Assembly (NCBI GenBank): GCA_963422685.1
Contig: OY730442.1
Coordinates: 2,695,847 to 2,759,846 of the forward strand
Reading direction: 5' to 3'
From: Arenicellales bacterium
Lineage (GTDB): Bacteria; Pseudomonadota; Gammaproteobacteria; Arenicellales; Poriferihabitantaceae
DNA length: 64,000 nt
This document shows, piece after piece, positions 6,293-51,209 of the stretch. Each line of letters opens with the position of its first letter. Positions within the stretch are counted from its first letter, which is position 1. A program made the translations under genes and the position numbers. The notes below the pieces were generated by a model, which saw nothing but the letters and a program-made list of their open reading frames with translations, was not told the DNA's origin and did no database searches.

Positions 6293-6359
6293 ATATCGAG
6301 CGCGTTTATGCTATTACCGCTTAGGCTATTACCTAGGGGATACGGTTACTGGCGGCCAG

Positions 6360-22153: not shown

Positions 22154-22270
22154 AACTCCTTCCTGTGAGAGGGGTATCCGTTGCAGTTCATTTCAATTTG
22201 GCCGGACGGAGTACTTTTCATACCACATTAGGATTACTACTAATTGAACATCCTACGTAAGGAGAATATT

Positions 22271-23446: not shown

Positions 23447-23481
23447 GATTTAGATAGCGTGAATAAATCAGTGCTGGAGTA

Positions 23482-25314: not shown

Positions 25315-25331
25315 CAGGCATTGAATAACAA

Positions 25332-25961: not shown

Positions 25962-25966
25962 CTCCC

Positions 25967-28063: not shown

Positions 28064-28065
28064 CC

Positions 28066-30090: not shown

Positions 30091-30099
30091 TTTGCAGAC

Positions 30100-32364: not shown

Positions 32365-32376
32365 GCAAAAAATTAA

Positions 32377-33876: not shown

Positions 33877-34284
33877 TCAACGGTATTCTGCCAGTAAATC
33901 GGCGATGCGCTTTAAAAATATTGCATGTTCGCTCGCTTCTTCAGAAGAAAAGGATTCCTTGAGGATTTTCACGGGTTGTCCGCGTACTCCCGGGCAGATG
34001 CCGATACGGTAGTCTTCATGCCGGCGTTTGCATACGGTTATGTACTTGCCTGCCATCGGTTGACGACGGAATTTATCCAGTACCGTGATTAAATCCTTAC
34101 TGTGTTCAATCGGCGGTCTGCCGTTTCCCGGAGGCCCGGCCACAGGATTCGCTTTATGTTCAGCGATCAGCCGGTTACGGGTTGCCGCGTCAGTCAGCAG
34201 GGGCAATACATGGGTCCGGGTGATGTAGTCGTCGGTGCTGGTGCGCCCCTGGTCAGTTTGCACGCCGGTTGGTTTATTTAGCAT
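33877..34284 (-). CDS. N,N-dimethylformamidase small (alpha) subunit-like protein
   Basis: 135 aa. ...AEHKANPVAG...LDKFRRQPMAGKYITVCKRRHEDYRIGICPG...FSSEEASEHAIFLKRIADL follows the pattern I recall for the DMFase small subunit (...F.MQP.FG.YYI...W..YRI...F.TEEEAMHAVFLRRI.D). It lies downstream of the large-subunit homologue. Confidence 0.55.
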   Translation of the reverse strand: MLNKPTGVQTDQGRTSTDDYITRTHVLPLLTDAATRNRLIAEHKANPVAGPPGNGRPPIEHSKDLITVLDKFRRQPMAGKYITVCKRRHEDYRIGICPGVRGQPVKILKESFSSEEASEHAIFLKRIADLLAEYR

Positions 34285-34323: not shown

Positions 34324-34692
34324 TCAAGTACATCGACACGGCGCTGATTCGCCGCGCACTTGTTTGATGCGGCGCGCTTCACGCTGCGCCAGTTCCGGTG
34401 TGGGAAAGCGCTTGTCTGCAAATAATATGATTGGCTTTATCCGGTCCGCATTGAGTTGGCCCACACACCATTCTTTATCCGGTTTGGTGCATACCACCAT
34501 GTAGGCGCCTGGAATGGGGCCATAGCGCCGATTGTTCAGTACAAACAGGCATTCAGCCAAATTGTTAAGTTTATCCACGTCCAGTTGACTCAATGCGGCC
34601 ATTTCCAGCTCATTGGGCGACACCAATGCCGCTCCCATCACTTCTTTACCCTGGGGTCGTTGCATCATCGGCGGTGATTGATTGTCTGGCAT
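34324..34692 (-). CDS. Divergent paralogue of the DMFase small-subunit-like protein
   Basis: 122 aa. GAYMVVCTKPDKEWCVGQLNADRIKPIILFADKRFPTPELAQREARRIKQV aligns with GKYITVCKRRHEDYRIGICPGVRGQPVKILKESFSSEEASEHAIFLKRI of the neighbour. Confidence 0.5.
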   Translation of the reverse strand: MPDNQSPPMMQRPQGKEVMGAALVSPNELEMAALSQLDVDKLNNLAECLFVLNNRRYGPIPGAYMVVCTKPDKEWCVGQLNADRIKPIILFADKRFPTPELAQREARRIKQVRGESAPCRCT

Positions 34693-34731: not shown

Positions 34732-37089
34732 CTAGGGCAGGGGGCCGTCTTTGAGAAACCCTTTGATGGTATTTTCGAGAATACGGGAGACGTTATTGTT
34801 GTAGTTGTTATGGGAAAGACTGCCGCACCAGGAAAGTGAACCGGGTGCGAACAGCGCACCGTCGTTCGGAGTTTTATAATAAATCATGTCAGCGCGAACC
34901 TGTGGGTTTTCAGTGCCGCCGCCATAATAACCGCGGACGGAGAAATGTATCTCCTCGTTCACTTGCAGCATGAGATTGGTGTGGCCTTCGGAACGCGCCA
35001 GCAAATAGGCATTGTGCGGCGTACCGAATTCCAGATCATAACGATCAAGTTCAAGGCCTGCGGCGCCGCCGCCGACCAGACCAAAGTCTCCGATTATTTC
35101 ATCTTCGCCGACACCTTCGAAAATCCAGGCGCATTCTGGTCTCTTGCTGTCCGCTTCACGGCGGTAATACGAGGACACATCAAAGCCGTAAGCGGTAAAC
35201 GTCAATCCGCATACCTTGCTTGGTATGCGCCCGCGTGCCCGCCACATTCCACCGAACTTTCCATCAAAGGCATTATTATATTCGCCTGGATTTGCCGTCC
35301 ATGCCCGAGTGCCTGCCTCACCTTTGCGCACTTCGATAATATTGTCATTGTCCGGGTGGTATTCGCTGACCCAGTAAAATCCGTCCGCACCCAGATATAT
35401 CCAGCGTCCGCCTCCGAGTTGATAGGACTCGTAGGCGGCATACATTTTTTCCGACGTGTATTCAGGATGGCTGCCGGTCAACACCGTTCTATACCGATTA
35501 AGCATTCCCACCCCTTCGCGATGCAGATCTTCATCGGTATGCACATCAAAATCGAAGCCTGTTTGTTCCAGCCAGTCGGTGAGATGCAAATCGCCGTTAA
35601 GCTGCCATAACGATGGCGACAGCCAGTGACGATACTTGGGTCGCATATTCAATATCGGGCGCAGGCGCGATGAGTAGCATACGCCACTGCCGTCTGAGTG
35701 CAGCGAGTAGGTAGACAAGCCGTATTCCCTATGTTCATTCAAATACAGGTCTGAAGGGGACAACACCGGGACTTTGCCCGCCAGCAATTGCGCGACCACC
35801 GAATTGGTGCCCAGGTTGTCGTTGGAATACGCCATGTAACTGTTGGTCGGTAAAATCAACGCCAGTCTGGATGTGGTCGTGCCTTGGGGCGGGCGAACAA
35901 CAAACGGAATAAAATCTTCGGTATCAGCAGAATCATCGCCGCCGATACGTAACCGGGCGGCATAAACCCCGCTTTTCAAACCTTCCGGCACGGTAAATTC
36001 AAAATCCATGTCCCAGCGAGCATCGTCGATATCGTCGTCATGGAAATGAATCGCGCCGTATTCATCGGGCCGGTGATGGTAGACAATCTCATCCCCGGTC
36101 CAGTTGAAACCGGTCATCGCTCTGGCCGGCAGGTTGATCGCATGACCATTGAGTATGTTCGGCGAGGTGTCGATAATATAAGTGGATGCGATGTTTGTAG
36201 TGATATTGGCGTGGAAATCCCACGCGCCGACAACATCATTCCGCAGCTCCGCCGCACAGCCCTCAAAGCCCCGTGCCAGCGCCTCAATCTCGGATTTGGA
36301 CAGCGCTCGACGGCAGAGTCTGGGGCGGTCGATTTTGCCGTTATAGACATGGGTTTGCTCCGGCAGCTCGACGGGCTGAGTCGCTTCCCTGTAATGTGCG
36401 CCGAAAATTGCTCTACCCGATCTTTCCTGCAAAGTTGAGGCGGCCATCAGCAAAGGCGCATCATTTATGCCGGGGAGCATACTGTTAGTTGCTTCCACCA
36501 CAGCAGTGGTTTCATCTCCGGGATGCAACAGCGACATACCCAGGCCGCCATTGGTAGCGGTGACCACGGGTTCCTGATACAACGTGACTCGACCACTTTG
36601 TTCATCAAAAGTCGCCGCTGCCAAATACCAGACTTTGCGCATCAGTTTCTTGTCGCTGGACAGGTTCATTACCAGTCCCCTACCGTCGCCAATCTCCAGG
36701 CTCAGGCAACCGCTATGGTCTATAAATAATCCATACCCGCATTTATTCTGCTCTGTCCATTTGGTGAGAATACCCTGCCTGCCCTTATCCGGTGTGGTTG
36801 GAAAAATGTAGGCTTGCAGGGTAAAACTCTGGACATTCAGGCGCTCGTCCTGAGGAATGATGATATAGGAACCGCCGTGAATTCTCTGGTTTCTGCCCGC
36901 ATAGGTTGTGTTGCAGGACGCGGTGATTTCCTCTTCCTTGTAGCCCGGTCCTTGCGGGTTGGTGTCGCCGTGGATTAAACGAACAATATGCGCATCATAG
37001 GATTCCTGCTCCTCGGAATTCACATAGAACTTGATGTTATCTCCAGGACAAACAGAATACTTGTCACTGTATCCGGTAATTCGTAACAT
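34732..37089 (-). CDS. N,N-dimethylformamidase large (beta) subunit family amidohydrolase
   Basis: Blocks match my recollection of DMFase: MLRITGY...VRLIHGDTNPQGPGYKEEE, DARWDMDFEFTVPEGLKSGVYAA, GLSTYSLHSDGSGVCYSSRLRPILNMRPKYR, VLTGSHPEY, GLVGGGAAGLELDRYDLEFGTP and NNVSRILENTIKGFLKD. The start was set at the ATG at 37089, because the ORF-track start overlaps the upstream SSS gene. Confidence 0.8.
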   Translation of the reverse strand: MLRITGYSDKYSVCPGDNIKFYVNSEEQESYDAHIVRLIHGDTNPQGPGYKEEEITASCNTTYAGRNQRIHGGSYIIIPQDERLNVQSFTLQAYIFPTTPDKGRQGILTKWTEQNKCGYGLFIDHSGCLSLEIGDGRGLVMNLSSDKKLMRKVWYLAAATFDEQSGRVTLYQEPVVTATNGGLGMSLLHPGDETTAVVEATNSMLPGINDAPLLMAASTLQERSGRAIFGAHYREATQPVELPEQTHVYNGKIDRPRLCRRALSKSEIEALARGFEGCAAELRNDVVGAWDFHANITTNIASTYIIDTSPNILNGHAINLPARAMTGFNWTGDEIVYHHRPDEYGAIHFHDDDIDDARWDMDFEFTVPEGLKSGVYAARLRIGGDDSADTEDFIPFVVRPPQGTTTSRLALILPTNSYMAYSNDNLGTNSVVAQLLAGKVPVLSPSDLYLNEHREYGLSTYSLHSDGSGVCYSSRLRPILNMRPKYRHWLSPSLWQLNGDLHLTDWLEQTGFDFDVHTDEDLHREGVGMLNRYRTVLTGSHPEYTSEKMYAAYESYQLGGGRWIYLGADGFYWVSEYHPDNDNIIEVRKGEAGTRAWTANPGEYNNAFDGKFGGMWRARGRIPSKVCGLTFTAYGFDVSSYYRREADSKRPECAWIFEGVGEDEIIGDFGLVGGGAAGLELDRYDLEFGTPHNAYLLARSEGHTNLMLQVNEEIHFSVRGYYGGGTENPQVRADMIYYKTPNDGALFAPGSLSWCGSLSHNNYNNNVSRILENTIKGFLKDGPLP

Positions 37090-37117
37090 GGTTTTTTCCC
37101 CGAATAATCGCCTTGAA

Positions 37118-39058
37118 TTAATATTTTGAGCCACTGGCAACTCTTTCGATTTCCCGTTCTGGAACAGTGGACATCTCCATTTTGCAGGCCAGATACCAAA
37201 TCATGCCTACGCCCAGCGCCCACCAGATAATCTGCCATGCCCAGATCGATGGCATACCCAGATTCCAGGCCGGATATCCTGCATCGGGCTCACCGAAAAG
37301 TACATTGCCAAGCACCGCACCGGGACCGATCGCAAAAAACATCCACACCAGTACGATGACTGCGGCGACGGATTTTGACCAGCGTCTGTGTCTCGTCAAT
37401 GAACCGTATTCTTTAAGAAAATCGTGCACCTGGCTGCGTCGCGGCCGGTGCACATCGTTGCGCCCCATAGCCGAAACGATGAGGCAGACCAGGATATTCA
37501 AAAACATACCCCATGCGGCAGAATGTATGGTCCAGGGCCAACGCCCCCAGGGCAGCGAATCCGCTGCGAGCTTCTGCCCCAGAGGTTCGGTCATGACCAC
37601 AGCAATCAGACCGGCAATCAAACCCAGGGTGGCAGCCTGTCGCGTGATCCAGGGAAACCATGTCACAGCAAGCAGCGACGGCCACAGTTGAAACCCAAAG
37701 GCAATGGCAAGACTGCCAAGCAGTATGGTAGCTTCCATTGAATAGGTGGCGATCAGCATGGCGGCCAGAAATACCAGCCCGGTACACAGCCGACCCACCC
37801 GCTTTTGTTTTTCATGATTCGCGTCAGGCTGGATATAGCGTTTATAAATATCCCGGGTCAAAATACTGCCAGTGGCGGCCATAAATGCACCGGCCGTTGC
37901 CTGTAACGCCGCAATGGCACAGACTGCAAACACCCCTATTAGCCAGGGCTGTTTGTCACCGATCAGTTTTATGTAGTGCACTGCCAGGGAGTTTCTTTCA
38001 TGGCCAGCCAGTACGGGTAGTATCTGCGCGGTGGCGATGTCGGCTTCATTGACTTGGGCATTGGCGCCCAGCAAATGTGCGCTAACACCCATCAAGGTGG
38101 AAAATACAAGCATGATGATCCCGGCGCAAAACGCGGCCCCCCAAACTTGATGGATGACGAATCCGCGTGGCGACTGGCTTGCAAAGCCCCACATGGAAAT
38201 AGCGGGCGAAGCCTGAATTCCCATTATCGACATCATAAAAGTCAGGCACATGATGGCTGTCCAGGGGCCGCCAGAAGGCGATTCGACACCGATTCCGGCG
38301 GTCCATTGAATTACCCCCGGGATGGCAAAGTATCCCGGGAAATTTCCACCGCCTGAACCATTCGTATTGCCCCACAAGCCCGGCAAGTTCTGTGCGATGC
38401 GTGCCAGACCTCTGTTCAGAGAGTCGAATCCCCCGGCCGTTTCCAGGGCAAATGTGCCGAGTACAACCACGCCAAAGGCAAACAATACGCACTGTACCAC
38501 AGCGATTTTCGCCACAGCCTGCATACCCCCAGTGGTACAGTACAGCAATACGAAGCCCGATAATACCCACATGGCAGCGTCACGGGATATGGTTTGATCG
38601 GTCAACTCACCGATCAAAAACCCGGATGCACCGAATAGCATGGCGGCAAATGGCACACCGAACAACAGCGCGATACCGACGGATACGATACGCAGCGCAT
38701 TGCCGCCAAAATAGTCTGCAAACATTTCGCCGCACGTCATATATCCAAATCGTCGCCCCAGCATCCACTGGCGTTTGAGGAGTACCACACCCGCTAACGC
38801 CACGGCTATGCCGTAAAAGGATGTATTAACGAATTGAAAGCCATCACGAAATACTAAACCGGGGTGCCCCATAAACGCCCAGCCTGCCAAGGTCACCGCA
38901 GTGATGGCAAGAGAAAATACCCAGGGCGAAAGCTGTCGGCCGGCAAGAAAAAAATCGCTGGCGGTGTGTGCCCGACGCAGCGCACGGATACCCCAGAAGA
39001 AACAATATGCCCAGTAAAGCAGCAAAAACAGCAGCAGCCAGATGGTGCTGTGGGTCAT
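37118..39058 (-). CDS. Sodium:solute symporter (SSS) family transporter
   Basis: 646 aa, about 13-14 hydrophobic segments, with an SSF-type N-terminus (LLLYWAYCFFWGIRALRRAHTASDFFLAGRQLSPW). It ends 28 nt before the amidase start. Confidence 0.8.
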   Translation of the reverse strand: MTHSTIWLLLFLLLYWAYCFFWGIRALRRAHTASDFFLAGRQLSPWVFSLAITAVTLAGWAFMGHPGLVFRDGFQFVNTSFYGIAVALAGVVLLKRQWMLGRRFGYMTCGEMFADYFGGNALRIVSVGIALLFGVPFAAMLFGASGFLIGELTDQTISRDAAMWVLSGFVLLYCTTGGMQAVAKIAVVQCVLFAFGVVVLGTFALETAGGFDSLNRGLARIAQNLPGLWGNTNGSGGGNFPGYFAIPGVIQWTAGIGVESPSGGPWTAIMCLTFMMSIMGIQASPAISMWGFASQSPRGFVIHQVWGAAFCAGIIMLVFSTLMGVSAHLLGANAQVNEADIATAQILPVLAGHERNSLAVHYIKLIGDKQPWLIGVFAVCAIAALQATAGAFMAATGSILTRDIYKRYIQPDANHEKQKRVGRLCTGLVFLAAMLIATYSMEATILLGSLAIAFGFQLWPSLLAVTWFPWITRQAATLGLIAGLIAVVMTEPLGQKLAADSLPWGRWPWTIHSAAWGMFLNILVCLIVSAMGRNDVHRPRRSQVHDFLKEYGSLTRHRRWSKSVAAVIVLVWMFFAIGPGAVLGNVLFGEPDAGYPAWNLGMPSIWAWQIIWWALGVGMIWYLACKMEMSTVPEREIERVASGSKY

Positions 39059-39121: not shown

Positions 39122-39883
39122 CTAGACAATTTGTTTTGGGGCCTGGGGGACCCGGGCCCAGAATTTCGGGTCATGCCCATAGAATATTCGCGCCCCGGCT
39201 TTTTCCAGCTTGCGCAGCAGCAACAGCGAATCAAGCATTTGGCTGCGATTATGAACCAGATGCGGCAGGTGCAGATTGGTCAGAGTTTCTTTTAAGTAAC
39301 AGGCATCAGCGGATAATATGATGTCACCAGAATCCAGGCGAACCTTCAGTGACTGGTGACCCGGAGTGTGGCCGAAGGTCGGTAGAGTGACTATGCGCCC
39401 ATCTCCGAACAAATCGTGTTCGCCGTTGACTTTCTGCACCAGATGACCATGATCATAATCCGCAGGAGCGTAGCCATTGGCTTTAATACATTCCGGGGTC
39501 TGCCCTGCTTCCCATTCGCGTTGTTGAATAATTATTTTGGCGTTTGGAATCAATTCATTACCGCCCGTATGATCAAAGTGCAGGTGTGAGTTAACCAGGT
39601 ATTCGATTTTATTCGCTTCGATATCCAGTTGTTGCAGACGTGACTTTATGTCCTCGCCCTGACGAAATTCAACACTAAAAAGATCCGCCAGAAATCCTAT
39701 CCTGCTGCGTGGATCATGCTGGCAGTGGGGATGCAGCCCGGTATCGAACAACACCTGACCGCGCGGGTGATCAACCAGATAAGCCGGCACCGGGAACCGA
39801 ATTCTGCCGGCTTTGCCGGCAAGCATCATGTTCAGCCCGGAGGTCAGCCAGCCGCAGGTCATGGCGTATACTTTTATGGACAC
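39122..39883 (-). CDS. Metallo-beta-lactamase fold hydrolase (AHL-lactonase-like subgroup)
   Basis: 253 aa with NSHLHFDHTGGN (HxHxDH), followed by the ...GHTPGH... and ...GHD... metal ligands. Confidence 0.75.
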   Translation of the reverse strand: MSIKVYAMTCGWLTSGLNMMLAGKAGRIRFPVPAYLVDHPRGQVLFDTGLHPHCQHDPRSRIGFLADLFSVEFRQGEDIKSRLQQLDIEANKIEYLVNSHLHFDHTGGNELIPNAKIIIQQREWEAGQTPECIKANGYAPADYDHGHLVQKVNGEHDLFGDGRIVTLPTFGHTPGHQSLKVRLDSGDIILSADACYLKETLTNLHLPHLVHNRSQMLDSLLLLRKLEKAGARIFYGHDPKFWARVPQAPKQIV

Positions 39884-39938: not shown

Positions 39939-40793
39939 TTATCCGTCGGTGCGTTCACGAATGATACGCAGCGCCTCTTTAAGATAGACCCGAAACACAT
40001 CGTAGTTTTCGCTCATCGGAAAATGGCCAATATCGTCCATCTCGATATAGACTCCGCCCCGTATCCGGCGTGCGGTATTTTCGGTGGCCTCAGGGGGAGT
40101 GAGGTAATCGTAGGTGCCGGTCATCATGATTACCGGGCATTTTCGACCCTGGATGTTTTGCAGTTCATCGCGCAGGTCGTGGTCAACGGAATAAAAGTAC
40201 AGATCTCCTTTGAACGCTTCTGACCCTTGGGTGTAATAGTGCCAGGTCAGCCAGCGATCCATTTCCGGCGATTGCGGTGCCATTAAATCCCACACACCGC
40301 TGCCACAAACCTGGGCCGCATTGGCGTGCGGATGGCGCCACCAATCCAGATAAAATCCTGGCGCATAGTCAGCCGCTTCTACCGGGATCACTGCCTTGAA
40401 TCGATCTGGCCGCCGCAGTGCAAGTTGTAATGCGACATTTCCGCCAAATGATGAGCCCATAAAAATCGGCTCCTTCAGCTCCAGCGCGTCACATAATCTG
40501 AGTATGAAATTACAATAGTGATCGGCGGTAAGTTTATATTCCTGTTTCCACCACTCGGTGTTATGGGGCGGGTCTGATTTTCCATGTCTGGGCAAGTCGT
40601 AGGCAATGACGTTGTAATGTTTTGTGATTTCTGCGTCTTCAAGCAGACCACGCCACTGGTGATTATGGCATCCGGCAGTGTGTTGACAGATGAGCGGCTG
40701 TCCCCGGCCATTATGTAGATAGAACACTTTGTACTCCTGACCATCAACATCAATTGTTACGTAGCGGCCGGTAACGGGGGAATGTTTTACCAT
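39939..40793 (-). CDS. Alpha/beta-fold hydrolase
   Basis: 284 aa with the nucleophile elbow MGSSFGG and a C-terminal ...DDIGHFP... histidine. Confidence 0.75.
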   Translation of the reverse strand: MVKHSPVTGRYVTIDVDGQEYKVFYLHNGRGQPLICQHTAGCHNHQWRGLLEDAEITKHYNVIAYDLPRHGKSDPPHNTEWWKQEYKLTADHYCNFILRLCDALELKEPIFMGSSFGGNVALQLALRRPDRFKAVIPVEAADYAPGFYLDWWRHPHANAAQVCGSGVWDLMAPQSPEMDRWLTWHYYTQGSEAFKGDLYFYSVDHDLRDELQNIQGRKCPVIMMTGTYDYLTPPEATENTARRIRGGVYIEMDDIGHFPMSENYDVFRVYLKEALRIIRERTDG

Positions 40794-40845: not shown

Positions 40846-41235
40846 TCACACGGGAACGCCGCTTTTGCGCAATAGTTCAAATTGCACGGTAAAATTACGG
40901 AGATTCTGCATAAGTACCAGATGATTACCCTCAATCTTCAGGTCCTTGCGAAAACTTGCCGACCAGATACCGTGATACATTGGTTTCGGCACAGGTTGGG
41001 AAAACTCCCGCCAGGTTGCCGCTGAGGCCCGCAGTGCGAAATCATACGCATCCAGCGGCCCGGGGTCCGTGTTAATATTTTTTATCTTGCCGTCGTGCAT
41101 TTCTATAATGAACCTGCAATCGGTCATGTCAAACATAAACGAGCAGGTGTAGTACTTCGCCATTGCGCCGATGGTTTCATCGCTATTTGTCAGGTTTGCG
41201 TACTTATCTGCCCAGGTTTTAGGGTCTTGCTTCAT
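40846..41235 (-). CDS. SCP2 sterol-carrier-like small protein (tentative)
   Basis: 129 aa. The pattern ...FMFDMTDCRFIIEMHDGKI...ALRASAATWREF...LKIEGNHLVLMQNL resembles SCP2 domains. Assigned from pattern only. Confidence 0.4.
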   Translation of the reverse strand: MKQDPKTWADKYANLTNSDETIGAMAKYYTCSFMFDMTDCRFIIEMHDGKIKNINTDPGPLDAYDFALRASAATWREFSQPVPKPMYHGIWSASFRKDLKIEGNHLVLMQNLRNFTVQFELLRKSGVPV

Positions 41236-41353: not shown

Positions 41354-43399
41354 TTAACTATTCTGCGGCTTCCCGGCGGACTTTGTCGTATTCGACCGGG
41401 TTGATGTACTCTGATCGGTGATTTCCTTGTCATAGCCACCCAGAATATTGCTGATGTTACTGATCTCTCCTGGTGACATGCCGATTTCCTGCAACAGATT
41501 ATCAACAAATGGCATTTGTGCACGGTAACGCAGCGCCGAGTTCACAACGTTATCTGCCAGACTGCTGCCCGGCGTATCATCGCCTTTTCTTGGTCTATCC
41601 CCGCTGCCGCCAGCGCCCTGGGGATGTCCATCGCTGAATCCGGGCATCCCGTTGACTTCCAGAATCTTGATAGCGTCAATGTTCTGCATTGGTTTCACCG
41701 CTTCCCGGATGATGGATTCAAGATTGCTCGCCAGTTGCATACGCAATGCACTGCGGCGACTGGCGTCGCTGCGCATATTCTCTGCCTCATTAAGCTGTCG
41801 CTTGCCAGCCGCCTCTACTTCATAACGCAGCCTGGTCGCCAACGAAGCAAACTTTTCGGCCTGCTCCCGGTCTGCGGACGCTGTTTTTTCGGCTTTGGCC
41901 AGCGTAGTCAGTTGAATCGCTTCGCGCTCCACCTGCTGGGCGGCATGAATCAGCTCGACGGCTTTTTTACGTTCTGCAATTTCCAGTTCACGCACTGAAG
42001 CAACTTTCTCCTCAGCGTCTGCGACTTGAGCGTGCGCCTGTTGTTCTTCGGTATTTGCCTGCAACACTTCCAGCGATTTTTTGGTAACCGCCAGATTGCG
42101 ATCCTGCTCTTCTATCTGCAATATCTTGAGTTTTTCGATTTCCTGGGCTTTGGTCTTTCGCTCATTTTCGATTCGAATCGCGTCAAGATTCCGCTGTTGC
42201 ACTATTTGCGCTTTTTTCACTTCTTCCCGGGCGCGGATCTGTGCTTGTTCGCCTTCCTGAAAACGCACTGCTTCCTGGGTCACCACATCCGCTTTCTGCT
42301 TTGCTCTGCGCACCGCAATTTCTTCCTGCTGCTGTAAGTGTACAAATTCATTTTCTTTTGCGATTTCGAGCGATCGGATGTCCGCTTCCAGGTTCTTCTG
42401 TTGAATCTGGATTTCGGTTTCTTTTTCGATCTGGTTGCGTAATCTGCGCCGTTCTTCGATTTCCAGGGTTAGTTTGTGATCGCGCAATGAACGTTCAACA
42501 TCAACAGCCTGTTCATAGCAGATGCGTGCTTTTTCAATTTCTTCATCGGCTTTTATCTGCGCTTCTTCGGCCTTGCGCTCCTGGTTGGCGCGCTCCACAG
42601 ACATTTCGGTGCGTTCTTTGGCGCGCTGTTTTTCTATATCTCTTTGTTGGGCAAGACGAGAAAATTCACTTTCTTTTTCAATGCCCAGCGCTCTTTTTTC
42701 TGCTTCCAGGTTTTTGTTGCGAATCTGAATCCGGGTGTCCTGTTCAATGTCGTTGCGTTTTTTCTTGCGCAGTTCAATTTGCTCGGTCAATTGGGTGAGA
42801 CCTTCTGCATCAAACGCATTGGATGGGTTGAATACTTCCAGGGCGGCCTGATCCAGGCCGGTCAGAGAAACCGCTTCAAGCTCAAGCCCGGTTTGACCTA
42901 ATGAATCTTCTACCAGCGCTTTGACCGACTTGACATAGTCGCCCCGATGTTCCTGCATTTCGTCCATGCTCATCTGCGCCGCAACAATCCCCAGGGCATC
43001 GACAAACCGGCCTTCCACCAATTCACGCAGGCTTTCCGGTTCCAGCGTACGTTTTCCAAGCGATCGCGCCGCTGTGGATACTGCTTCCCGGGTCGGCGTA
43101 ACGCGCACATAAAACTCCGCCACCAGTTCAACGCGCATTCGGTTTCTGGTGATCAGGGATTTGTCGCCGCCGCGCCGGACTTCAATGCGTAATGTGCGCA
43201 TGCCCACGGTGGTTATATTATGGATAATCGGCAATACGAAGGCGCCACCGCTAATTACAACCTTTTCACCACCGAGGCCACTGCGCACAAACGAGACTTC
43301 TTTGGAAGAGCGACGGTATAACCAGTGTAATAGATAAACTACGATAGCAATCGCAAGCCCAATCAGGATGATTACCGCAATAATGTCTGCACCGGTCAT
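41354..43399 (-). CDS. Flotillin / SPFH (band 7) family membrane-scaffold protein, YqiK-like
   Basis: N-terminal TM (IIAVIILIGLAIAIVVYLL), an SPFH domain (...VVISGGAFVLPIIHNITTVGMRTLRIEV...), and a long E/K/Q/R coiled coil with a tandem ~100-aa duplication. AGGAG RBS. Confidence 0.85.
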   Translation of the reverse strand: MTGADIIAVIILIGLAIAIVVYLLHWLYRRSSKEVSFVRSGLGGEKVVISGGAFVLPIIHNITTVGMRTLRIEVRRGGDKSLITRNRMRVELVAEFYVRVTPTREAVSTAARSLGKRTLEPESLRELVEGRFVDALGIVAAQMSMDEMQEHRGDYVKSVKALVEDSLGQTGLELEAVSLTGLDQAALEVFNPSNAFDAEGLTQLTEQIELRKKKRNDIEQDTRIQIRNKNLEAEKRALGIEKESEFSRLAQQRDIEKQRAKERTEMSVERANQERKAEEAQIKADEEIEKARICYEQAVDVERSLRDHKLTLEIEERRRLRNQIEKETEIQIQQKNLEADIRSLEIAKENEFVHLQQQEEIAVRRAKQKADVVTQEAVRFQEGEQAQIRAREEVKKAQIVQQRNLDAIRIENERKTKAQEIEKLKILQIEEQDRNLAVTKKSLEVLQANTEEQQAHAQVADAEEKVASVRELEIAERKKAVELIHAAQQVEREAIQLTTLAKAEKTASADREQAEKFASLATRLRYEVEAAGKRQLNEAENMRSDASRRSALRMQLASNLESIIREAVKPMQNIDAIKILEVNGMPGFSDGHPQGAGGSGDRPRKGDDTPGSSLADNVVNSALRYRAQMPFVDNLLQEIGMSPGEISNISNILGGYDKEITDQSTSTRSNTTKSAGKPQNS

Positions 43400-43460
43400 A
43401 ATTTCATGCTCCTAACTTGTTCTGTCGGCGACCATTTTTCACTGAAAATAAATAATAATG

Positions 43461-44159
43461 TCATGAATTCACTCGCGAATCGTTTATTGCAGCCCGATAG
43501 ATCACGAAACCGAAGATAATTTTGTTCAAAAAATCCGCGAGGTTGTAGATGATATTCAAACTATTGGTATCCACACCACCGCCCAGGTGTTCGATAAAAT
43601 AGCCGAGCGGATAAATTGCCCAGCCGATGGTGACAATCAGCCGTAAGCCGTTAAACGCCAGATGGGTGGCGTCGTTTCCGCTGTGCGCATTAACCCGGCC
43701 AGCTTCGCCCATATACAACTCACCCAGAATATACAGCCAGCCAACCAGCCCAATCAGAAAACCAAGGGTGGCGCTCATATAACCCGCCGCGCCGAGAAAT
43801 TCGCCAATGACCATCACCAGTGAACCTATCAGCAGTCGCCAGAATAACGCTGTGGAAGCCCTGGTTACCGCAGTGAGCACCACATAAAACAGAACCACCT
43901 GCATTGGATGGGTAAGCACCCAGTCAATGTATCGCAAAATTATCGGGGCGGAACCTGTGTCCATCCACATCTCTTTGGTGTAGTGATAATGGATCGCGGA
44001 GACCAGCATGACTACACCCAGCAGTGTCATTGTTGTATGCCATCTACCGGTCACCTTATTTCTTTCCAACAGGAAAAAAATGGTCGCGCCGATCAGGGCT
44101 ATGGACAACAGCCAGAATGAACCGCCGACAACATCAGTGGGTAACAGCGTCTCGTTCAT
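43461..44159 (-). CDS. Microbial (type I) rhodopsin, proteorhodopsin-like, with Leu at the proton-donor position
   Basis: 232 aa, colinear with proteorhodopsin as I recall it: SFWLL..., IHYHY (His75 equivalent), RYIDWVLTHPMQVVLFY (Asp97 and Thr101 equivalents present, Gln at tuning site 105, Leu at 108), and IYNLADFLNKIIFG (Asp227 and retinal Lys231 equivalents). Confidence 0.88.
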   Translation of the reverse strand: MNETLLPTDVVGGSFWLLSIALIGATIFFLLERNKVTGRWHTTMTLLGVVMLVSAIHYHYTKEMWMDTGSAPIILRYIDWVLTHPMQVVLFYVVLTAVTRASTALFWRLLIGSLVMVIGEFLGAAGYMSATLGFLIGLVGWLYILGELYMGEAGRVNAHSGNDATHLAFNGLRLIVTIGWAIYPLGYFIEHLGGGVDTNSLNIIYNLADFLNKIIFGFVIYRAAINDSRVNS

Positions 44160-44305
44160 GAAATATCAAATGTCTTGTTTTATTTTTATAACTGATTTCA
44201 TCGGGATAGCCGGTGGATAAACGATTGATCCCTTTCCGCCGGGGCGGAATTTGCCAGATCTGCAATCAGGTTAATGCCACCCGCATCTGGCTTAATGACT
44301 GGCAA

Positions 44306-44346
44306 TATATATCATTAGTTATAGATCCTGGTCAATAGTCTATATT
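44306..44346 (-). promoter_or_regulatory. Putative sigma70-type promoter with a palindromic box (box 2) upstream of the rhodopsin-led block
   Basis: The minus strand reads AATATAGACTATTGACCAGG-15 nt-TATATA. This is identical at 18 of 20 positions to box 1, with the same spacing, and sits about 145 nt upstream of the rhodopsin ATG. Confidence 0.5.
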
Positions 44347-44377: not shown

Positions 44378-45421
44378 CTAGGGCTGTTCGCTCATCGTCA
44401 GAATCAGTTGCTGGCGAAAATTGTCAGCAATAATTGCCACAATCAAAAGCATGCCGATGGCCACCATTTGCAGATAAGAGTTGATACGCAGAAGATTCAT
44501 GCCGTTTTGGACCAGGATGATGAATACTGCTCCCAGCACGACGTTTGAAAGACGCCCCACACCGCCGAACAGACTCACCCCGCCGATGGCACATGCGGCG
44601 ATGGAAAGCAGAGGATAATTTGCGCCGATATTGGATTCCCCGCTTTCGAGCCGCGCGGTCAGCAGCAAGGCCGCGATGCCGGTAATCACTGAAGAAATAA
44701 TGTAGGCGCCAAGCAGATAGAAGCGCGTATTGATTCCAGAAAGGCCGGCGGCCCGTATGTTGCCGCCGATGGCGTATAAATATCGCCCCATGGGTGTCCA
44801 GTTAATGAATATATACATCACAGCGATGCACAGTACGGTAATCCATACCGGCACGGCTATGCCGCCTATTTGACCGTAACCAAATACATTGGCGAATGAT
44901 TCCGGTACGCCATAGATCGGTGTTCCTCCGGTAATCGTCAGCGACAACCCAAATACGATGGACGACATGGCCAGCGTCATCACAAATGGTGGAACACGGA
45001 AAATTGCAACGCCGATGCCATTGATTGTACCGATACCTACACTGGCGCCAAGCCCGGCCAGACAACCAATAAACACGGATTCCCAGCCGGTGCCATAGCC
45101 GGACCACAGCGACACCATGGTCATTGATGATACGACAGATGTCATGGCCAGCATGACGCCAACCGAAAGATCCAGACCTGCTGTGAGCATGACCACCATC
45201 TGCGCCATCGCCACCAGAACCAGATAGGTGGACTGCCGGGAAATCCCGAACAGATTTCTCTCCGTCAGGAAATTTTCGTTAGTGAGTCCAAATCCGATTA
45301 CGGCGAGACCCAGAAACCAGGGCAACACTCCACCTTTTATAAATAATATGGATGCGGTTCGTTTTATTTTTACTACCGCACGTATTGATTTTTTATTCAT
45401 TAATGCACGCCTTTTGTTCAA
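44378..45421 (-). CDS. CUT2-type ABC permease (RbsC-like), ordinary size
   Basis: 347 aa of BPD_transp_2 (...LTAGLDLSVGVMLAM..., ...IGGVSLFGGVGRLSNVVLGA...). It has a 4-nt overlap with the upstream ATPase gene. Confidence 0.88.
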   Translation of the reverse strand: MNKRRALMNKKSIRAVVKIKRTASILFIKGGVLPWFLGLAVIGFGLTNENFLTERNLFGISRQSTYLVLVAMAQMVVMLTAGLDLSVGVMLAMTSVVSSMTMVSLWSGYGTGWESVFIGCLAGLGASVGIGTINGIGVAIFRVPPFVMTLAMSSIVFGLSLTITGGTPIYGVPESFANVFGYGQIGGIAVPVWITVLCIAVMYIFINWTPMGRYLYAIGGNIRAAGLSGINTRFYLLGAYIISSVITGIAALLLTARLESGESNIGANYPLLSIAACAIGGVSLFGGVGRLSNVVLGAVFIILVQNGMNLLRINSYLQMVAIGMLLIVAIIADNFRQQLILTMSEQP

Positions 45422-47034
45422 AAAAAATAATTCAGCAATGCCTGCTCTGTAAGGTTGTCCCGGGCCAGTTCAGTACACAGTTCACCACGGTGCATGACGT
45501 AGGCGCGGTGGGTTAAATTCACGATTTCCGACAAGTCGGATGAGATCAGCAAGACCCCGGCGCCGGCTTCGCACACATCCCGAATAAGGCGATATATCGA
45601 TGCCCGGGTACCGACATCAACCCCGACCGTGGGTTCATCGAGAATAAATAGCTTGACGTCTCGCACTAGACTCTTTGCCACCAGTACTTTTTGTTGATTG
45701 CCGCCCGAAAGATGTTCAAGCGATCTTTCAATACCAATCGGGTTCAGGCCCAATCGTCGCGCAACCTCGCCCACAATATCTCTCTCACTCCGCCGGTTTA
45801 ACAGCAGGCCGCTGGAAAATTTCGGCAATCCGAGCGAAGGCAGCGAAACATTTTCCCGAACGTTTTGTATCATTACCAGGCCTTCAACCCGTCTGTCGGA
45901 AGGTAGATACAACATCCCGCGATCCAGCATCGCACGGGGACTGAGATCGTTGATGCGCCGCGCACTGTCATAAACCGGATCATCCAGATACGCAATACGC
46001 CCGGTTCGTATTTTGTGCAGCCCAAAACACGCCCGACCAATTTCCGACTTTCCCGAACCTACGAGACCAGCAATACCAACCACCTCACCTGCGTGCACGT
46101 TAATCGACACATCACGGGCAACCTGATTGCTCAGGTTCAGCCATTTTATATCTAACAACAATCTGCCGGACTGCGTATTAATTTCTGGAAATATCTGTTC
46201 AATGCGGCGGCCGACGGTTAATTCCACCAGCTTTTCTTCGCTGGTGTCCGCAACGGACACCGTTGCAACCTGCCTACCATCACGCAAAATCGTAATTCGG
46301 TCGCTGATGCGGTAAATCTCATTGGTGCGATGGGTTATGTAGATGACGCCAATGCCTTCGTCCTTTAGCACTTCAATCATCGCATACAGACGATTCGCTT
46401 CATGCGCGGTCAATGAAGCAGTGGGCTCATCCAGAATCATGATAGATGGTTTGGTGCGAAAAGCCTTGGCAATCTCGACCATCTGCTGCTCTGCCCGGGA
46501 AAGGTGCATGACCTTTCTCTCGGGTATCAGCGCAAATCCCAGGCTGTTCAGTGTCTCACAGGCTCGCCGATGCAAACTGGCCTTGTCGAGAAACGGCCCG
46601 ACCAGTTGTTCGGAACCCAAAAATAAATTTTCCTCAACGGTGAGCTGGGGAATTAACGAAAACTCTTGAAATACTGCACTGATACCCAGCTCACGAGCGT
46701 GTTGAACCGAGCCAATTATCACTTCTTCGTCGTTCAGGAAAACCGTCCCTGAAGTCGGCCGAATAACTCCGGCAATAATTTGGATGAGTGTCGATTTGCC
46801 CGCGCCGTTTTCTCCAAACAAAGCATGCACCTCACCCGAACACACATCGAAATTCACGCGATCCAGCGCCAGAGTGTCGGGGAAATATTTGGAAATATTT
46901 TCAAGTCGCAGCAACGGTCTGGTGCGGGCTTTGTTCGGCTTCGATACCAAACCCTCCTGGTGGCGGATTTTCACACTTTGCTGCCTCTTGTCGGTTTGCG
47001 GGTGCTGTATAGTTGTTGATGCCAGCGCATTCAA
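45418..47034 (-). CDS. CUT2-type ABC ATPase (two canonical NBDs), no tail
   Basis: GENGAGKST / LSRAEQQMVEIAKAF / MILDEPTASL, and GLVGSGKSE / LSGGNQQKV / FILDEPTVGVD. It ends ...LLNYFF. Confidence 0.9.
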   Translation of the reverse strand: MNALASTTIQHPQTDKRQQSVKIRHQEGLVSKPNKARTRPLLRLENISKYFPDTLALDRVNFDVCSGEVHALFGENGAGKSTLIQIIAGVIRPTSGTVFLNDEEVIIGSVQHARELGISAVFQEFSLIPQLTVEENLFLGSEQLVGPFLDKASLHRRACETLNSLGFALIPERKVMHLSRAEQQMVEIAKAFRTKPSIMILDEPTASLTAHEANRLYAMIEVLKDEGIGVIYITHRTNEIYRISDRITILRDGRQVATVSVADTSEEKLVELTVGRRIEQIFPEINTQSGRLLLDIKWLNLSNQVARDVSINVHAGEVVGIAGLVGSGKSEIGRACFGLHKIRTGRIAYLDDPVYDSARRINDLSPRAMLDRGMLYLPSDRRVEGLVMIQNVRENVSLPSLGLPKFSSGLLLNRRSERDIVGEVARRLGLNPIGIERSLEHLSGGNQQKVLVAKSLVRDVKLFILDEPTVGVDVGTRASIYRLIRDVCEAGAGVLLISSDLSEIVNLTHRAYVMHRGELCTELARDNLTEQALLNYFF

Positions 47035-48264
47035 TCAGTCCACGGAAAATTTCGGTATCCACCCCGTCGGCGCCAGGGTTGTGGCGGTATTGAATTCTGC
47101 AACCGTCTCCGGCGTCACAATAATAAACGGAGGCTGGACGTGCTCAATCAAACGGCCGGTATGGTTAAATTCCGGCCGACCACCAGTGGCCATACCTTTA
47201 TTTTCCAGCAGCCTCACGGCCTGATCAATCGCGACCCGCGCCTGGGTGATCATTTGATCGGATGGCGCCATTGCAACGGCACCACGCTTCAGGAATATGT
47301 GCATACCCGGGGTGTAATAATACGCCACCAATTTGATTTGCTTTTCCAGATTGCGCTCCCTGATTGCGCCAACAGCACCTTCAATGGTGGTCGCCGTGCC
47401 AACGATAAAGTCGAGTTCGACATTTTCCCCGGAGGTCATCGTTTGCAAAATATTTTCGACTAATTCCAACTGTATGGCTTTACCGGTATCGCCCCACCTG
47501 GTCTCCAGTATCTCCACATCTGTACCCTCTACTGCTGCGTGGCAGCCCTTGTCGCCGGCAACCGACCAACCAGCGCCGGGCGGCCCGGGAAACCATACAA
47601 CCTTGACCCTGCCGGTTCTGGTTTGAGGCTGATCGACGACCCACTTGCATGAAACGTAGCCCATGCTATAGAAGCTCTGCAACGAATTGGCGTCCACCGC
47701 CGTGTTGATTCCCGTAATAATAACCACTACCGGAACGCCTTTTGCGCGAATCACATCGATTTGTTTGGCATTGCCGTCGCTGGAAATGGGCGCAATAACC
47801 AACGCTTCTGCGCCGTTGGCGATGCAGTCTTCAACCTGGTTTAGCTGCCTTTCCAGATTGGTATAACCGCCTGCCTCGACCAGTGTTATTTTTTGCCCGA
47901 GGCGTTTTCCTTCGGAAATAATGCCATAGGCAACACCGGCAAAGTAGGAGTCTTTCATGTGGGGGAAAGACACGCATATATGGTGTTTTTCTGCTACTTC
48001 GGCCAGCATCAACGGCACATAATCCACCAGGTCCAGCTTCGCTAACTGGTTTCGTGGATCTGTCCAACAGGTCACATCCCCATCCGTGCACGCAGGATTG
48101 TATACATGAATCCTGGTCGGCCACCACTGCGCATCCTGCGCCGATGCGGACAAAGTCAACATCATTCCTGCCAACAATATACCAGCCGGCATCGTTGTCA
48201 GAATCAATGGTAACTTTTTCACACTCTTGCTCTCCCGATATACATTTGATTTTATACTGAACAA
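47035..48264 (-). CDS. Periplasmic binding protein, PBP1 (sugar/TorT-like) family
   Basis: Signal peptide ...KKLPLILTTMPAGILLAGMMLTLSASAQD and a Peripla_BP-like body. The true start may be the GTG at 48222, preceded by GGGAG. Confidence 0.75.
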   Translation of the reverse strand: MFSIKSNVYRESKSVKKLPLILTTMPAGILLAGMMLTLSASAQDAQWWPTRIHVYNPACTDGDVTCWTDPRNQLAKLDLVDYVPLMLAEVAEKHHICVSFPHMKDSYFAGVAYGIISEGKRLGQKITLVEAGGYTNLERQLNQVEDCIANGAEALVIAPISSDGNAKQIDVIRAKGVPVVVIITGINTAVDANSLQSFYSMGYVSCKWVVDQPQTRTGRVKVVWFPGPPGAGWSVAGDKGCHAAVEGTDVEILETRWGDTGKAIQLELVENILQTMTSGENVELDFIVGTATTIEGAVGAIRERNLEKQIKLVAYYYTPGMHIFLKRGAVAMAPSDQMITQARVAIDQAVRLLENKGMATGGRPEFNHTGRLIEHVQPPFIIVTPETVAEFNTATTLAPTGWIPKFSVD

Positions 48265-48427: not shown

Positions 48428-49120
48428 ATGACAGGCACGGCTGGCGAAAAGGCAAAGGAACAATCCGGTTTACGAATTGTGATTGCCGATGATCACGCAT
48501 TGGTGCGGGGCGGGTTGGCATTATTGATCGATATGGCCTCCCCTGGCGCGGAAGTTTTGCACGCCAACAGCCTCGGGCAGGTAACCGATATTCTTTCGCA
48601 AAAAGGCGCAATTAACCTTTTGCTGCTGGATCTCATGATGCCGGGCATGGAGGGGGAGGCGGGTTTAAAAACCATTTGCAGCTCCTGGCCGGATGTGCCC
48701 GTGATCATTGTCTCGGTCAAAGAAGACATCCACTCCATTCGACAATGCCTCGCAGCCGGCGCGATGGGCTATCTCCCCAAGACCTCCAGATCCAATATTA
48801 TAGTCAGCGCCATTCGATTGGTACTGGAGGGCGGCATATACATTCCGCCGCATGTTTTGCAACTGGACAAAAGTCAATCAGATCATAATCTGAACCCCCC
48901 GGGGTCGGTGTCGGAAAACGCTTTGACCCGTCGGCAGCTACAGGTGCTTGAGCTTATCGAATCCGGCAAATCCAACAAAGCAATTGCCGGCGAGTTAGGG
49001 TTGTCCACGGGCACTGTGAAAATGCACGTTTCCGGGATTTTCAAAAAACTGAACATAGCAAGTCGTACCGAAGCAGTGGCCGTTTACTCCAGGTTAAAGA
49101 AAAGTATCGGGCAACCGTGA
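48428..49120 (+). CDS. Response regulator, NarL/FixJ (LuxR HTH) family
   Basis: REC domain (RIVIADDH...LLLLDLMMPGM...) plus a C-terminal LuxR HTH (LTRRQLQVLELIESGKSNKAIAGELGLSTGTVKMHVSGIFKKL). Confidence 0.88.
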   Translation: MTGTAGEKAKEQSGLRIVIADDHALVRGGLALLIDMASPGAEVLHANSLGQVTDILSQKGAINLLLLDLMMPGMEGEAGLKTICSSWPDVPVIIVSVKEDIHSIRQCLAAGAMGYLPKTSRSNIIVSAIRLVLEGGIYIPPHVLQLDKSQSDHNLNPPGSVSENALTRRQLQVLELIESGKSNKAIAGELGLSTGTVKMHVSGIFKKLNIASRTEAVAVYSRLKKSIGQP

Positions 49121-49142: not shown

Positions 49143-51209
49143 TTATGACATGCCTGTGGAGTCGGCCTGAGAGCCGGGCCCGGGGGCTGTCATATGAGAA
49201 ATCAGTGCGCGCAGTCTGGCGGGTTGCACTGGTTTACACATCACCTGATAGCCCTGATTAGCGATGTCTCTTATGTGGCTTTCCTGTACATCTCCGGTAA
49301 CAATCACAGTGGGAATCGCATGTCCAATCATCAGTTGAACCCGACTGGCGACCTCAACTCCCTGGGTTCCGCCGGGTAATCGATTATCGGCAACAATGAT
49401 GTCAGGTGGTTTTGTACTTTGCTCTCCAACAATATCAATCACTTCATCCATGTTTCGACCTGTGACCACATGGCAGCCCCAGGATTCCAGGAGCTGCCGG
49501 GTCGCTTTCAAAACCTCCATATCATCTTCTATGAGCAGAACCCGTCTGCCCGATAAGCCATGAATCAGGTTTTCCAGGATGCCGGTTTCCGCCGCCTGAC
49601 CAGGCAGATTTTTACCGCCTGCAACCAATACGGCGAATCGCGACCCACTTCCAACCATAGAATCGCACTCGATTTCATGCGATAAGCACGCGGCCAGGCG
49701 TTTGGCGATGGCCAGCCCTAGCCCCAGACCCTTGCTTCGGTCTCGCTCCTCGTTATGGATTTGATGAAAATCTTCGAAAATGGCCAGGGTCTGGTCATCA
49801 GGGATTCCCCAGCCAGTATCCCAGACTTCAATTGAAATACTGCTGCCTCGCCGACGCACGCCAATCAATATCCGCCCTTGCCGGGTATAGCGTATGGCGT
49901 TTGACATGAAGTTGCCGAGAATTCGTTCCAGTAAAACCGGATCACTGCGTACCGATGCACTCGAAGGTATCAGTCGAAAATCCAGTTTCTTTTGTTTCGC
50001 GGCGGGTGCAAATTCCCGAAAAACCCGGCCCAGCAATTCCATAACGGGGAAGTCTTTATAACTGGGCTCTATCGCCCCGGCTTCGAGTTGCGAGACATCC
50101 AGCAGCGCACTCAGCAGTCGCGCCGTAGAGATGGAAACTGCATCGATGTCATCGACAATCGCCAGCGACTCTTGATCCACGGTTTTCTGGCGCAGCGCTG
50201 TTATGTACATCTGCATGGCATGCAGTGGCTGGCGCAGGTCGTGGCTGGCGGCTGCCAGAAACATGGATTTGGCCCGGTTCGCCTGCTCGGCTTCTTCTTT
50301 CGCGTCACGAAGGTCCTGGCCCTGGCGCCATAAATCGTGCTTTAACCGGTTGAAACTGCGGCCCATGCGCCCCAGTTCGTCCCGCCGCGCCATAAGCCCT
50401 TTTTCAAATTCAGATTCTTCGACCTGGAACATCGCGGTGAAAGCATTGATGGTGTCGGTGAGTAATTGCAAAGGCCTGGAGATGTTTTTTCTGATAATCA
50501 GCAGCAGCATCGCAATAAAAAAAATAACCGCGGCTAACAAGGTTAAAATGATAAAACCAGTCGCAATTCGCTTAACATAGACCGCATGTCTGATTGACTC
50601 TTGCCGTATTATTTCGAGCCGGGCGGTTAAATCTGCGAGTTTGTCCATCAATGTCATTTCGCTGCTTCGAATGTGCTCCAGAATTTCCAGTTCCATTGAA
50701 AATGAACGATCTTCAATTTGTTGCAGCAGATTGCGTACCAGCCGGTCATAAATTTGCGTCGCACGCCGCAGGCTAAAAAGCGCCTGCAATAGATCTTCGC
50801 TGTTCAAGGACAAGATATTTTCGTTCGCATCCTGCTGCACCACTGATTTTCGAATGAACTTTTCCGTGGACTCAATGCTTTTCTGTATTTCCTTCCCGCT
50901 ATCCAGATAACCCGAGCGCACACCGGGATTGATCGTGTCAATATGGTTGCCGTCGGCCGTTTGCGTAGCGCCAATGATAATTTCTTTGGTACTCAGGCGC
51001 TGATTCAATATCTGTGACCGGATATTTTCGATGGACAGGTGCAACGGCAAGGTAACTTCTGCGATCCGATCGACCTGGTCGCCAACATGGCGCAATTGTG
51101 AAATGGCAACAAGCGCCACGAAGCAAAACCCAACCACTTCAATCACAATCAAAGTAAATACTTTCTGATCCAGAGAAAATCGATTGAACGTTTTCTTTAT
51201 GCCCTGCAC
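49143..51209 (-). CDS. Hybrid sensor histidine kinase (TM-sensor-TM, HisKA, HATPase_c, REC)
   Basis: H-box FLAAASHDLRQPL, the N and G boxes (...GNFMSNAIRYT..., ...DTGWGIP..., ...GLGLGLAI...), and a C-terminal receiver (VLLIEDD...IIVADNRLPG). Confidence 0.88.
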   Translation of the reverse strand: MQGIKKTFNRFSLDQKVFTLIVIEVVGFCFVALVAISQLRHVGDQVDRIAEVTLPLHLSIENIRSQILNQRLSTKEIIIGATQTADGNHIDTINPGVRSGYLDSGKEIQKSIESTEKFIRKSVVQQDANENILSLNSEDLLQALFSLRRATQIYDRLVRNLLQQIEDRSFSMELEILEHIRSSEMTLMDKLADLTARLEIIRQESIRHAVYVKRIATGFIILTLLAAVIFFIAMLLLIIRKNISRPLQLLTDTINAFTAMFQVEESEFEKGLMARRDELGRMGRSFNRLKHDLWRQGQDLRDAKEEAEQANRAKSMFLAAASHDLRQPLHAMQMYITALRQKTVDQESLAIVDDIDAVSISTARLLSALLDVSQLEAGAIEPSYKDFPVMELLGRVFREFAPAAKQKKLDFRLIPSSASVRSDPVLLERILGNFMSNAIRYTRQGRILIGVRRRGSSISIEVWDTGWGIPDDQTLAIFEDFHQIHNEERDRSKGLGLGLAIAKRLAACLSHEIECDSMVGSGSRFAVLVAGGKNLPGQAAETGILENLIHGLSGRRVLLIEDDMEVLKATRQLLESWGCHVVTGRNMDEVIDIVGEQSTKPPDIIVADNRLPGGTQGVEVASRVQLMIGHAIPTVIVTGDVQESHIRDIANQGYQVMCKPVQPARLRALISHMTAPGPGSQADSTGMS

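Follow-up and report, generated by a model that had tools for sequence, protein, structure and literature searches.

The window analyzed here is a 64,000 nt stretch of contig OY730442.1 (positions 2,695,847–2,759,846 of the forward strand, GenBank assembly GCA_963422685.1) from an Arenicellales bacterium. It carries, on the minus strand, a rhodopsin gene (positions 43461–44159) followed by a flotillin gene (positions 41354–43399). The rhodopsin is 232 aa in length and has a Pfam Bac_rhodopsin match of 119 bits. The flotillin is 681 aa, with Pfam matches to Band_7 (PF01145, 45 bits) and Flot (PF15975, 106 bits) that are above the cut-offs. It is highly likely that this locus represents a flotillin-associated rhodopsin (FArhodopsin or FAR) operon that works by the mechanism proposed below.

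The two genes are separated by an AT-rich spacer of 61 nt (positions 43400–43460, minus strand), which holds the ribosome-binding site AGGAG at positions 43409–43413, 9 nt ahead of the flotillin ATG. This start is confirmed by the flotillin N-terminus MT(x)GADIIA, which is conserved in 40 of 40 homologous loci. The RNA fold of the spacer has a value of -13.4 kcal/mol and is less structured than shuffled sequences (mean -18.0 kcal/mol, z = +1.55). A consensus scan of the minus strand over positions 43400–43460 reveals no terminator-like and no sigma-70-like site. An earlier note on this DNA, made from the sequence alone, had described a same-strand pair 61 nt apart, with an AGGAG site ahead of the flotillin ATG and no hairpin terminator found between the genes, and the coordinates, the reading frames, the site and the fold analysis all agree with that description.

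FArhodopsins were named from single-cell genomes of SAR11, HIMB59 and Pseudothioglobus, where a flotillin gene always adjoins them in the same orientation (Haro-Moreno et al., mSystems 2023, PMC10308929). The top PDB match of the window rhodopsin is 9r21, the "flotillin-associated rhodopsin" of Pseudothioglobus (PsFAR), with an E value of 6e-126 and an alignment that is ungapped over residues 1–229. The sites compared in the window rhodopsin are S54, H57, D79, T83, H84, L90, E120, D209 and K213. The helix C motif D-T-(L/M) and residues H84, E120, S54 and K213 are present in both proteins, but position 90 is Met in PsFAR and Leu in the window rhodopsin, and position 57 is Phe in PsFAR and His in the window. 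Genomic copies from Pseudothioglobus/Thioglobus (loci L008–L011) are 80–83% identical to the window rhodopsin. All 41 proteorhodopsins retrieved have V84, E90, G120 and A54. The carboxylate proton donor of helix C is missing from the window protein (D79/T83/L90; FArhodopsins display DTT, DTL or DNI instead of DTE). The proteorhodopsin N-terminal leader is also missing, as residues 8–228 align with residues 27–248 of blue proteorhodopsin 4kly. In a 46-sequence tree the FARs form a clade with an SH-aLRT support of 99, separate inside the proteorhodopsin family, and the window rhodopsin is found inside this clade beside copies from Ca. Poriferihabitaceae. NCBIfam has no model for the rhodopsin, for the flotillin or for the SCP2-like protein encoded downstream of them. 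By these sequence characters, the window rhodopsin is a member of the FArhodopsin family.

Residue 57 (codon at positions 43989–43991, minus strand) is His as in proteorhodopsins, and it is Phe in PsFAR and its nearest relatives (L007–L012). Most other FARs, including those of SAR11, keep His57. Phe57, on which the described oligomer contacts of PsFAR are based, is therefore a feature of a subclade.

PsFAR is colourless and binds no retinal, with H84 and E120 filling the pocket; a chromophore is regained only by the H84V/E120G double mutant, and S54 stabilises the free lysine in a pocket of the PsFAR type (Kovalev et al. 2025, 10.1101/2025.04.29.651185). From the presence of H84 and E120 and the absence of the retinal-synthesis gene blh from the host genome, the window rhodopsin is predicted to bind no retinal. 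A different set of pocket residues is found in the deepest-branching flotillin-linked rhodopsin, from a Kiloniellaceae metagenome-assembled genome (MAG; L038, positions 6001–6690). This protein has V84, A120 and S90 and is similar in its pocket residues to proteorhodopsins that bind retinal, but neither blh nor a second rhodopsin is present in its genome. On its sequence it may be an intermediate between proteorhodopsins and the retinal-free FARs.

A retinal-free FAR could itself be a small-molecule sensor, or a gated pore for a substrate of the gene cluster, in which water-filled cavities replace retinal and the flotillin merely concentrates the protein. In the structure of PsFAR there are internal cavities filled with water, the central pore is narrowed (10 angstrom) and helix G is flexible (10.1101/2025.04.29.651185), and both the very strong conservation and the presence of transporters and a two-component system in the cluster are in keeping with such a role. 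A ligand or a transport activity is so far unreported, however, and this explanation is considered unlikely.

The pairing of the two genes is highly conserved. A genome scan with one genome per species gave 80 loci (L002–L081). The flotillin gene is directly downstream of the rhodopsin gene, on the same strand and 15–108 nt off, in all 39 loci with a rhodopsin at least 60% identical to that of the window (L002–L040). One more locus, from genome G036 of the same order (L084), displays the full series of rhodopsin, flotillin, SCP2-like protein, hydrolase, MBL, SSS and DMFase (N,N-dimethylformamidase) genes, and the flotillin is thus downstream in 40 of 40 FAR loci. The remaining loci (L041–L081, rhodopsin at most 55% identical) have proteorhodopsin-type genes, and a flotillin gene is downstream in none of the 41. 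This difference shows that the adjacency of rhodopsin and flotillin is not due to chance. The same pair is also found in five independent metagenome/run assemblies of an 89%-identical protein. The earlier note had proposed a synteny check and had allowed that the adjacency might be unique to this genome; the pairing is instead widespread. Its statement that the arrangement is not known to be described has to be withdrawn, as the pairing defines the FArhodopsins reported in 2023 (mSystems, PMC10308929), for which cryo-EM structures (9r21–9r23) followed in 2025.

Flotillins of approximately 690 aa are also encoded in genomes G013 (L082, C1:1937693–1938034) and G035 (L083, C1:99006–99350), where they adjoin ABC ATPase-like genes and the rhodopsin is absent. 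These were rejected as FAR-type flotillins, being just 37–39% identical to that type. A second type of long flotillin thus looks to be present in Arenicellales.

The window flotillin consists of an N-terminal membrane helix (approximately residues 3–31), an SPFH domain (approximately residues 46–184), a long coiled coil and a Flot C-terminal domain (residues 503–641). An AlphaFold2 model of the monomer shows a helix at residues 3–31, the SPFH domain at residues 70–184, and helices over residues 195–567 that include helices of more than 200 residues. The model is of low confidence (pLDDT 64.8, pTM 0.30) and was used for secondary structure and recognition of the SPFH fold only. Foldseek ranks the flotillin complexes 9l3g and 9bq2 highest, and the best structural matches also include prohibitin, HflK/C and stomatin cages; a PDB search with the flotillin sequence gave nothing at E ≤ 0.01. 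The coiled coil contains a tandem duplication of 101 aa (approximately residues 203–303 and 309–409; positions 42175–42792, minus strand), the two copies of which are 45% identical by self-BLAST (E 1e-27). Ordinary bacterial flotillins are shorter by approximately 150 aa, a difference accounted for by the duplication, and any cage built from this protein should be altered in height or width. This is the sole Flot-domain gene in the host genome. The flotillin is intact in 40 of 40 loci.

Upstream of the rhodopsin gene, a 36 nt element (positions 44305–44340, minus strand) is the only conserved block in spacers that are otherwise unalignable between the window and loci L002–L004. It is 38 nt after the stop codon of an ABC permease gene and consists of TTGACC, an 18 nt spacer ending in TGA (an extended -10 TG) and TATATA. 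The element occurs once in the window, compared with 0 expected in shuffled sequences, and may serve as promoter, and possibly also as operator, for a unit whose first gene is the rhodopsin. A long inverted repeat, GAGTTTGGAYAACTG ... CAGTTGTCCAAACT, is found approximately 100–200 nt upstream of the gene for the rhodopsin at Pseudothioglobus loci L008–L011. It differs from the promoter-like block of the Poriferihabitaceae-type loci and might terminate the gene before it or act as an operator.

On the minus strand, no intergenic terminator-like site is found from position 44159 to 33877, and the unit may thus run through nine genes, much as has been proposed for SAR11. In SAR11, metatranscriptome reads span the rhodopsin-flotillin junction (PMC10308929). 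Three probable RNA runs of the host contain sense-strand contigs of 137–215 nt inside both genes, but none of their reads or contigs crosses the junction in the window organism. The contigs end at positions 41604 and 43218 with unaligned poly-T; read on the strand of the gene, this corresponds to poly-A tails or to oligo-dT priming within the flotillin mRNA. This suggests that the RNA fragments derive from poly-A-selected host transcriptomes.

It is conceivable that transcription of the two neighbouring genes is separate, with an internal promoter in the 61 nt spacer. In favour of this, the spacer is rich in A and T and exceeds the 16 nt of SAR11, and the missing junction-spanning read is compatible with this. 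However, the spacer has no promoter-like site and no terminator, the corresponding spacers of relatives (21–83 nt) conserve the ribosome-binding site alone, and the sole conserved promoter-like block is upstream of the rhodopsin; separate transcription is thus improbable. The co-transcription claimed in the earlier note is upheld by the conserved pair and by the spacer, and the RNA contigs show both genes to be represented without joining them. From the sequence evidence, rhodopsin and flotillin are very probably co-transcribed in the window organism.

Downstream of the flotillin, the minus strand carries genes for an SCP2-like protein (positions 40846–41235; 129 aa, with a match of 13 bits that is below the Pfam threshold, so that the name rests on the annotation in PMC10308929), an alpha/beta hydrolase (39939–40793), an MBL-fold hydrolase (39122–39883), an SSS symporter (37118–39058) and a DMFase-like large subunit (34732–37140), the last four assigned by Pfam, and then two small open reading frames (34324–34692 and 33877–34284). 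The downstream genes are syntenic in L002–L006, L084 and the SAR11 loci. Upstream of the rhodopsin are genes, also assigned by Pfam, for an ABC importer consisting of binding protein, ATPase and permease (44378–48264, minus strand; conserved in L002–L004 and L089), a LuxR-type response regulator (48428–49120, plus strand) and a hybrid histidine kinase (49143–51209, minus strand), the last two of which are present in L002–L004 and L008–L011. This gene content matches that published for the FAR clusters of Pseudothioglobus and SAR11, i.e., a sterol-carrier-like protein, alpha/beta hydrolases, a sodium symporter, N,N-dimethylformamidase, an inner-membrane translocator, LuxR and a hybrid histidine kinase (PMC10308929). 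A convergent operon on the plus strand (22244–33786) encodes a second ABC importer with a binding protein, an ATPase and two oversized permeases (754 and 469 aa). The genes of this importer are interrupted by those for a 209 aa protein without a Pfam match and a HyuA/HyuB hydantoinase/oxoprolinase pair. In a speculation of the earlier note, the flotillin is a candidate receptor for the tailed proteins of this operon.

A comparison with the Pseudothioglobus cluster shows the same flotillin directly downstream of the rhodopsin, and DMFase-like, ABC transporter, LuxR and hybrid kinase genes are shared. The Pseudothioglobus spacer is shorter, approximately 21–31 nt compared with 61 nt, and the window cluster has additional SCP2-like, alpha/beta-hydrolase, MBL and SSS genes, as in SAR11. 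The SAR11 single-cell genome AG-390-L03 (L035) has the order rhodopsin, flotillin, SCP2-like, alpha/beta hydrolase and DMFase, and its hydrolase and DMFase are 85% and 78% identical to those of the window. However, its rhodopsin is just 61% identical, with a DTT motif and F84/Q120, its spacer is 16–17 nt, and its genome carries proteorhodopsin and blh.

The host genome is a single contig of 2.9 Mb with approximately 51% GC that is 98% complete. It shares its family with a MAG labelled Ca. Poriferihabitaceae, and such MAGs come from sponge genome projects. In this it differs from the streamlined planktonic hosts of the Pseudothioglobus type, and there is only one Bac_rhodopsin match in the whole genome, i.e., no proteorhodopsin paralog. 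No blh gene was found in it. A search of the genome for heliorhodopsin was negative, but it had no positive control and carries no weight. Marine FARs have been stated to be confined to three streamlined taxa, to be always accompanied by a proteorhodopsin, and have been proposed to complement its pump (PMC10308929). The host genome is outside that distribution, having neither a proteorhodopsin paralog nor the character of a streamlined planktonic genome. The assignment to the FArhodopsins still stands, because co-occurrence with a proteorhodopsin is a feature of the published distribution and not of the protein. The host is not alone in this respect: 12 of 16 other FAR genomes searched have a single rhodopsin, as does G036. 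The blh gene is absent from all 13 of the other FAR-only genomes, and it is present in three of four genomes that have a proteorhodopsin-type gene as well.

These properties of the genome also bear on the idea that the rhodopsin is a light sensor of the sensory type, with the flotillin as a partner in signalling or a transducer. In its favour, the protein retains the retinal lysine K213 together with the counter-ions D79 and D209 and, like sensory rhodopsins, lacks the proton donor, and the cluster has a LuxR regulator and a hybrid kinase. Nevertheless, H84 and E120 fill up the pocket, the very similar PsFAR does not bind retinal, the genome has neither blh nor another rhodopsin, and the host family is known from sponge metagenomes. 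The neighbours of the rhodopsin are the flotillin and the ABC permease, and Pfam reveals no adjacent transducer of the Htr/MCP type or the ASRT type. A sensory function is therefore very improbable, and the analogy with sensory rhodopsins drawn in the earlier note is not sustained.

That the FAR forms a hetero-complex with, or tunes, a co-resident proteorhodopsin pump, as was hypothesized in PMC10308929, is hardly tenable for this host: both genes are carried by SAR11, Pseudothioglobus, Njordibacter and one Acetobacteraceae genome, and their co-occurrence is universal in the single-cell genomes of that study, but the host genome with its single rhodopsin refutes the hypothesis here, unless a proteorhodopsin is located on an unassembled replicon, and together with the FAR-only genomes it argues against FARs assisting a co-resident proteorhodopsin.

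The distribution of the cluster is patchy. It is present in one of seven species of the genus and in two of 25 species of the family. In the tree the Poriferihabitaceae FARs are beside the Pseudothioglobus clade, and copies from Rhizobiaceae and Hyphomicrobiales are nested in the same group. Comparison of the window with Rhizobiaceae/Hyphomicrobiales gives identities of 60% for UvrA, 87–88% for the FAR and 92% for the hydrolase. The dN/dS values are approximately 0.03–0.05 with saturated synonymous sites, which is characteristic of strong purifying selection. As synonymous sites are saturated, the high identity to the alphaproteobacterial copies cannot date a transfer, and the case for transfer is made by the tree and by the patchy distribution. 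The 20 kb beside uvrA in four congeners that lack the cluster contain no syntenic window gene other than uvrA, and a boundary of an island is not drawable. The picture obtained from these comparisons is one of an old horizontal spread combined with strong constraint. That the locus is a decaying relic was rejected, given the intact flotillins and the low dN/dS values.

In the mechanism proposed, the rhodopsin, the flotillin and probably the seven downstream genes would share one transcript that starts at a promoter immediately upstream of the rhodopsin, and the flotillin would be translated from its own ribosome-binding site. The rhodopsin would form a pentamer in the membrane, free of retinal and blind to light. 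The flotillin, held in the membrane by the helix at its N-terminus and with its bulk in the cytoplasm, would assemble an SPFH cage over a patch of membrane, and the FAR pentamer would be a resident partner or nucleator of this patch. The two ABC importers, the SSS symporter and the amide/lactam-hydrolysing enzymes of the cluster may be gathered there. In the window lineage such a module would work independently of light and of any proteorhodopsin.

SPFH cages enclose client membrane proteins, e.g., FtsH and, in the case of stomatin, aquaporin-1. The window flotillin resembles the eukaryotic flotillin-1/2 cage (9bq2, 9l3g), HflK/C-FtsH and QmcA-YbbJ in that its SPFH domain is followed by a long coiled coil and, at the C-terminus, by an oligomerisation region. 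It differs from flotillin-1/2 and the bacterial SPFH cages in that the identity is only approximately 21%, it is 681 aa with a duplication of 101 aa and a single N-terminal transmembrane helix, and its cage is predicted. The rhodopsin can be compared with Rh-noK, a lysine-less xanthorhodopsin-like protein. Both have the rhodopsin fold with a natural loss of retinal binding (in the window protein a predicted one), and Rh-noK is thought to be non-photochemical. However, Rh-noK has lost the lysine and is in tandem with a working rhodopsin, whereas the window FAR keeps the lysine, would have its pocket blocked by side chains and is paired with a flotillin. A flotillin-organised membrane patch containing the rhodopsin and transporters, on which the earlier note had speculated, is a hypothesis already published for FArhodopsins (PMC10308929). 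Possible contact sites in PsFAR are helix G, which is cytoplasmic and elongated, and helix E, which is displaced (10.1101/2025.04.29.651185).

Several points weigh against the proposed mechanism. The window rhodopsin keeps K213, D79 and D209, as well as H57, a proteorhodopsin-like His that is lost in PsFAR, and its retinal-free state is a prediction. Confidence in the flotillin model is low (pTM 0.30), the RNA contigs leave the junction between the two genes uncrossed, and the completeness of most FAR-only MAGs is not established. PsFAR shows no obvious surface adaptation for flotillin binding (Kovalev et al., 10.1101/2025.04.29.651185), for which reason a physical association of FAR and flotillin is put forward here as a hypothesis.

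The gene pair itself adds nothing new, as a 2023 publication had already described FArhodopsins together with their flotillin partner, and the rhodopsin structure followed in 2025. What is new is the host, a genome of sponge-symbiont-type Arenicellales that carries a FAR and has no proton-pumping rhodopsin and no blh; no paper joining rhodopsin, flotillin and sponge was found in the literature searched. The locus is useful in that it provides a near-complete, single-contig genome with a FAR cluster and without proteorhodopsin or blh, and the same combination is found in 13 other FAR-only genomes. The range of marine FARs, previously SAR11, HIMB59 and Pseudothioglobus, is thereby widened to include host-associated bacteria whose genomes are larger. 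This is direct genomic evidence against the leading hypothesis, in which FARs help a co-resident proton pump when light is dim, and a role unrelated to light is favoured. Ca. Njordibacter sp. Uisw_039, with a complete genome that has FAR, proteorhodopsin and blh, is a possible experimental model. There is about an even chance that the FAR-flotillin module is a membrane-compartment device independent of light and of proteorhodopsin, which has moved horizontally with genes for amide/lactam uptake and hydrolysis among planktonic and sponge-associated Alpha- and Gammaproteobacteria, and in which the retinal-free rhodopsin pentamer is a structural client or nucleator of the flotillin cage in hosts such as that of the window. 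If true, the published view, in which FARs allow proteorhodopsin phototrophy to reach into dim light, would no longer hold.

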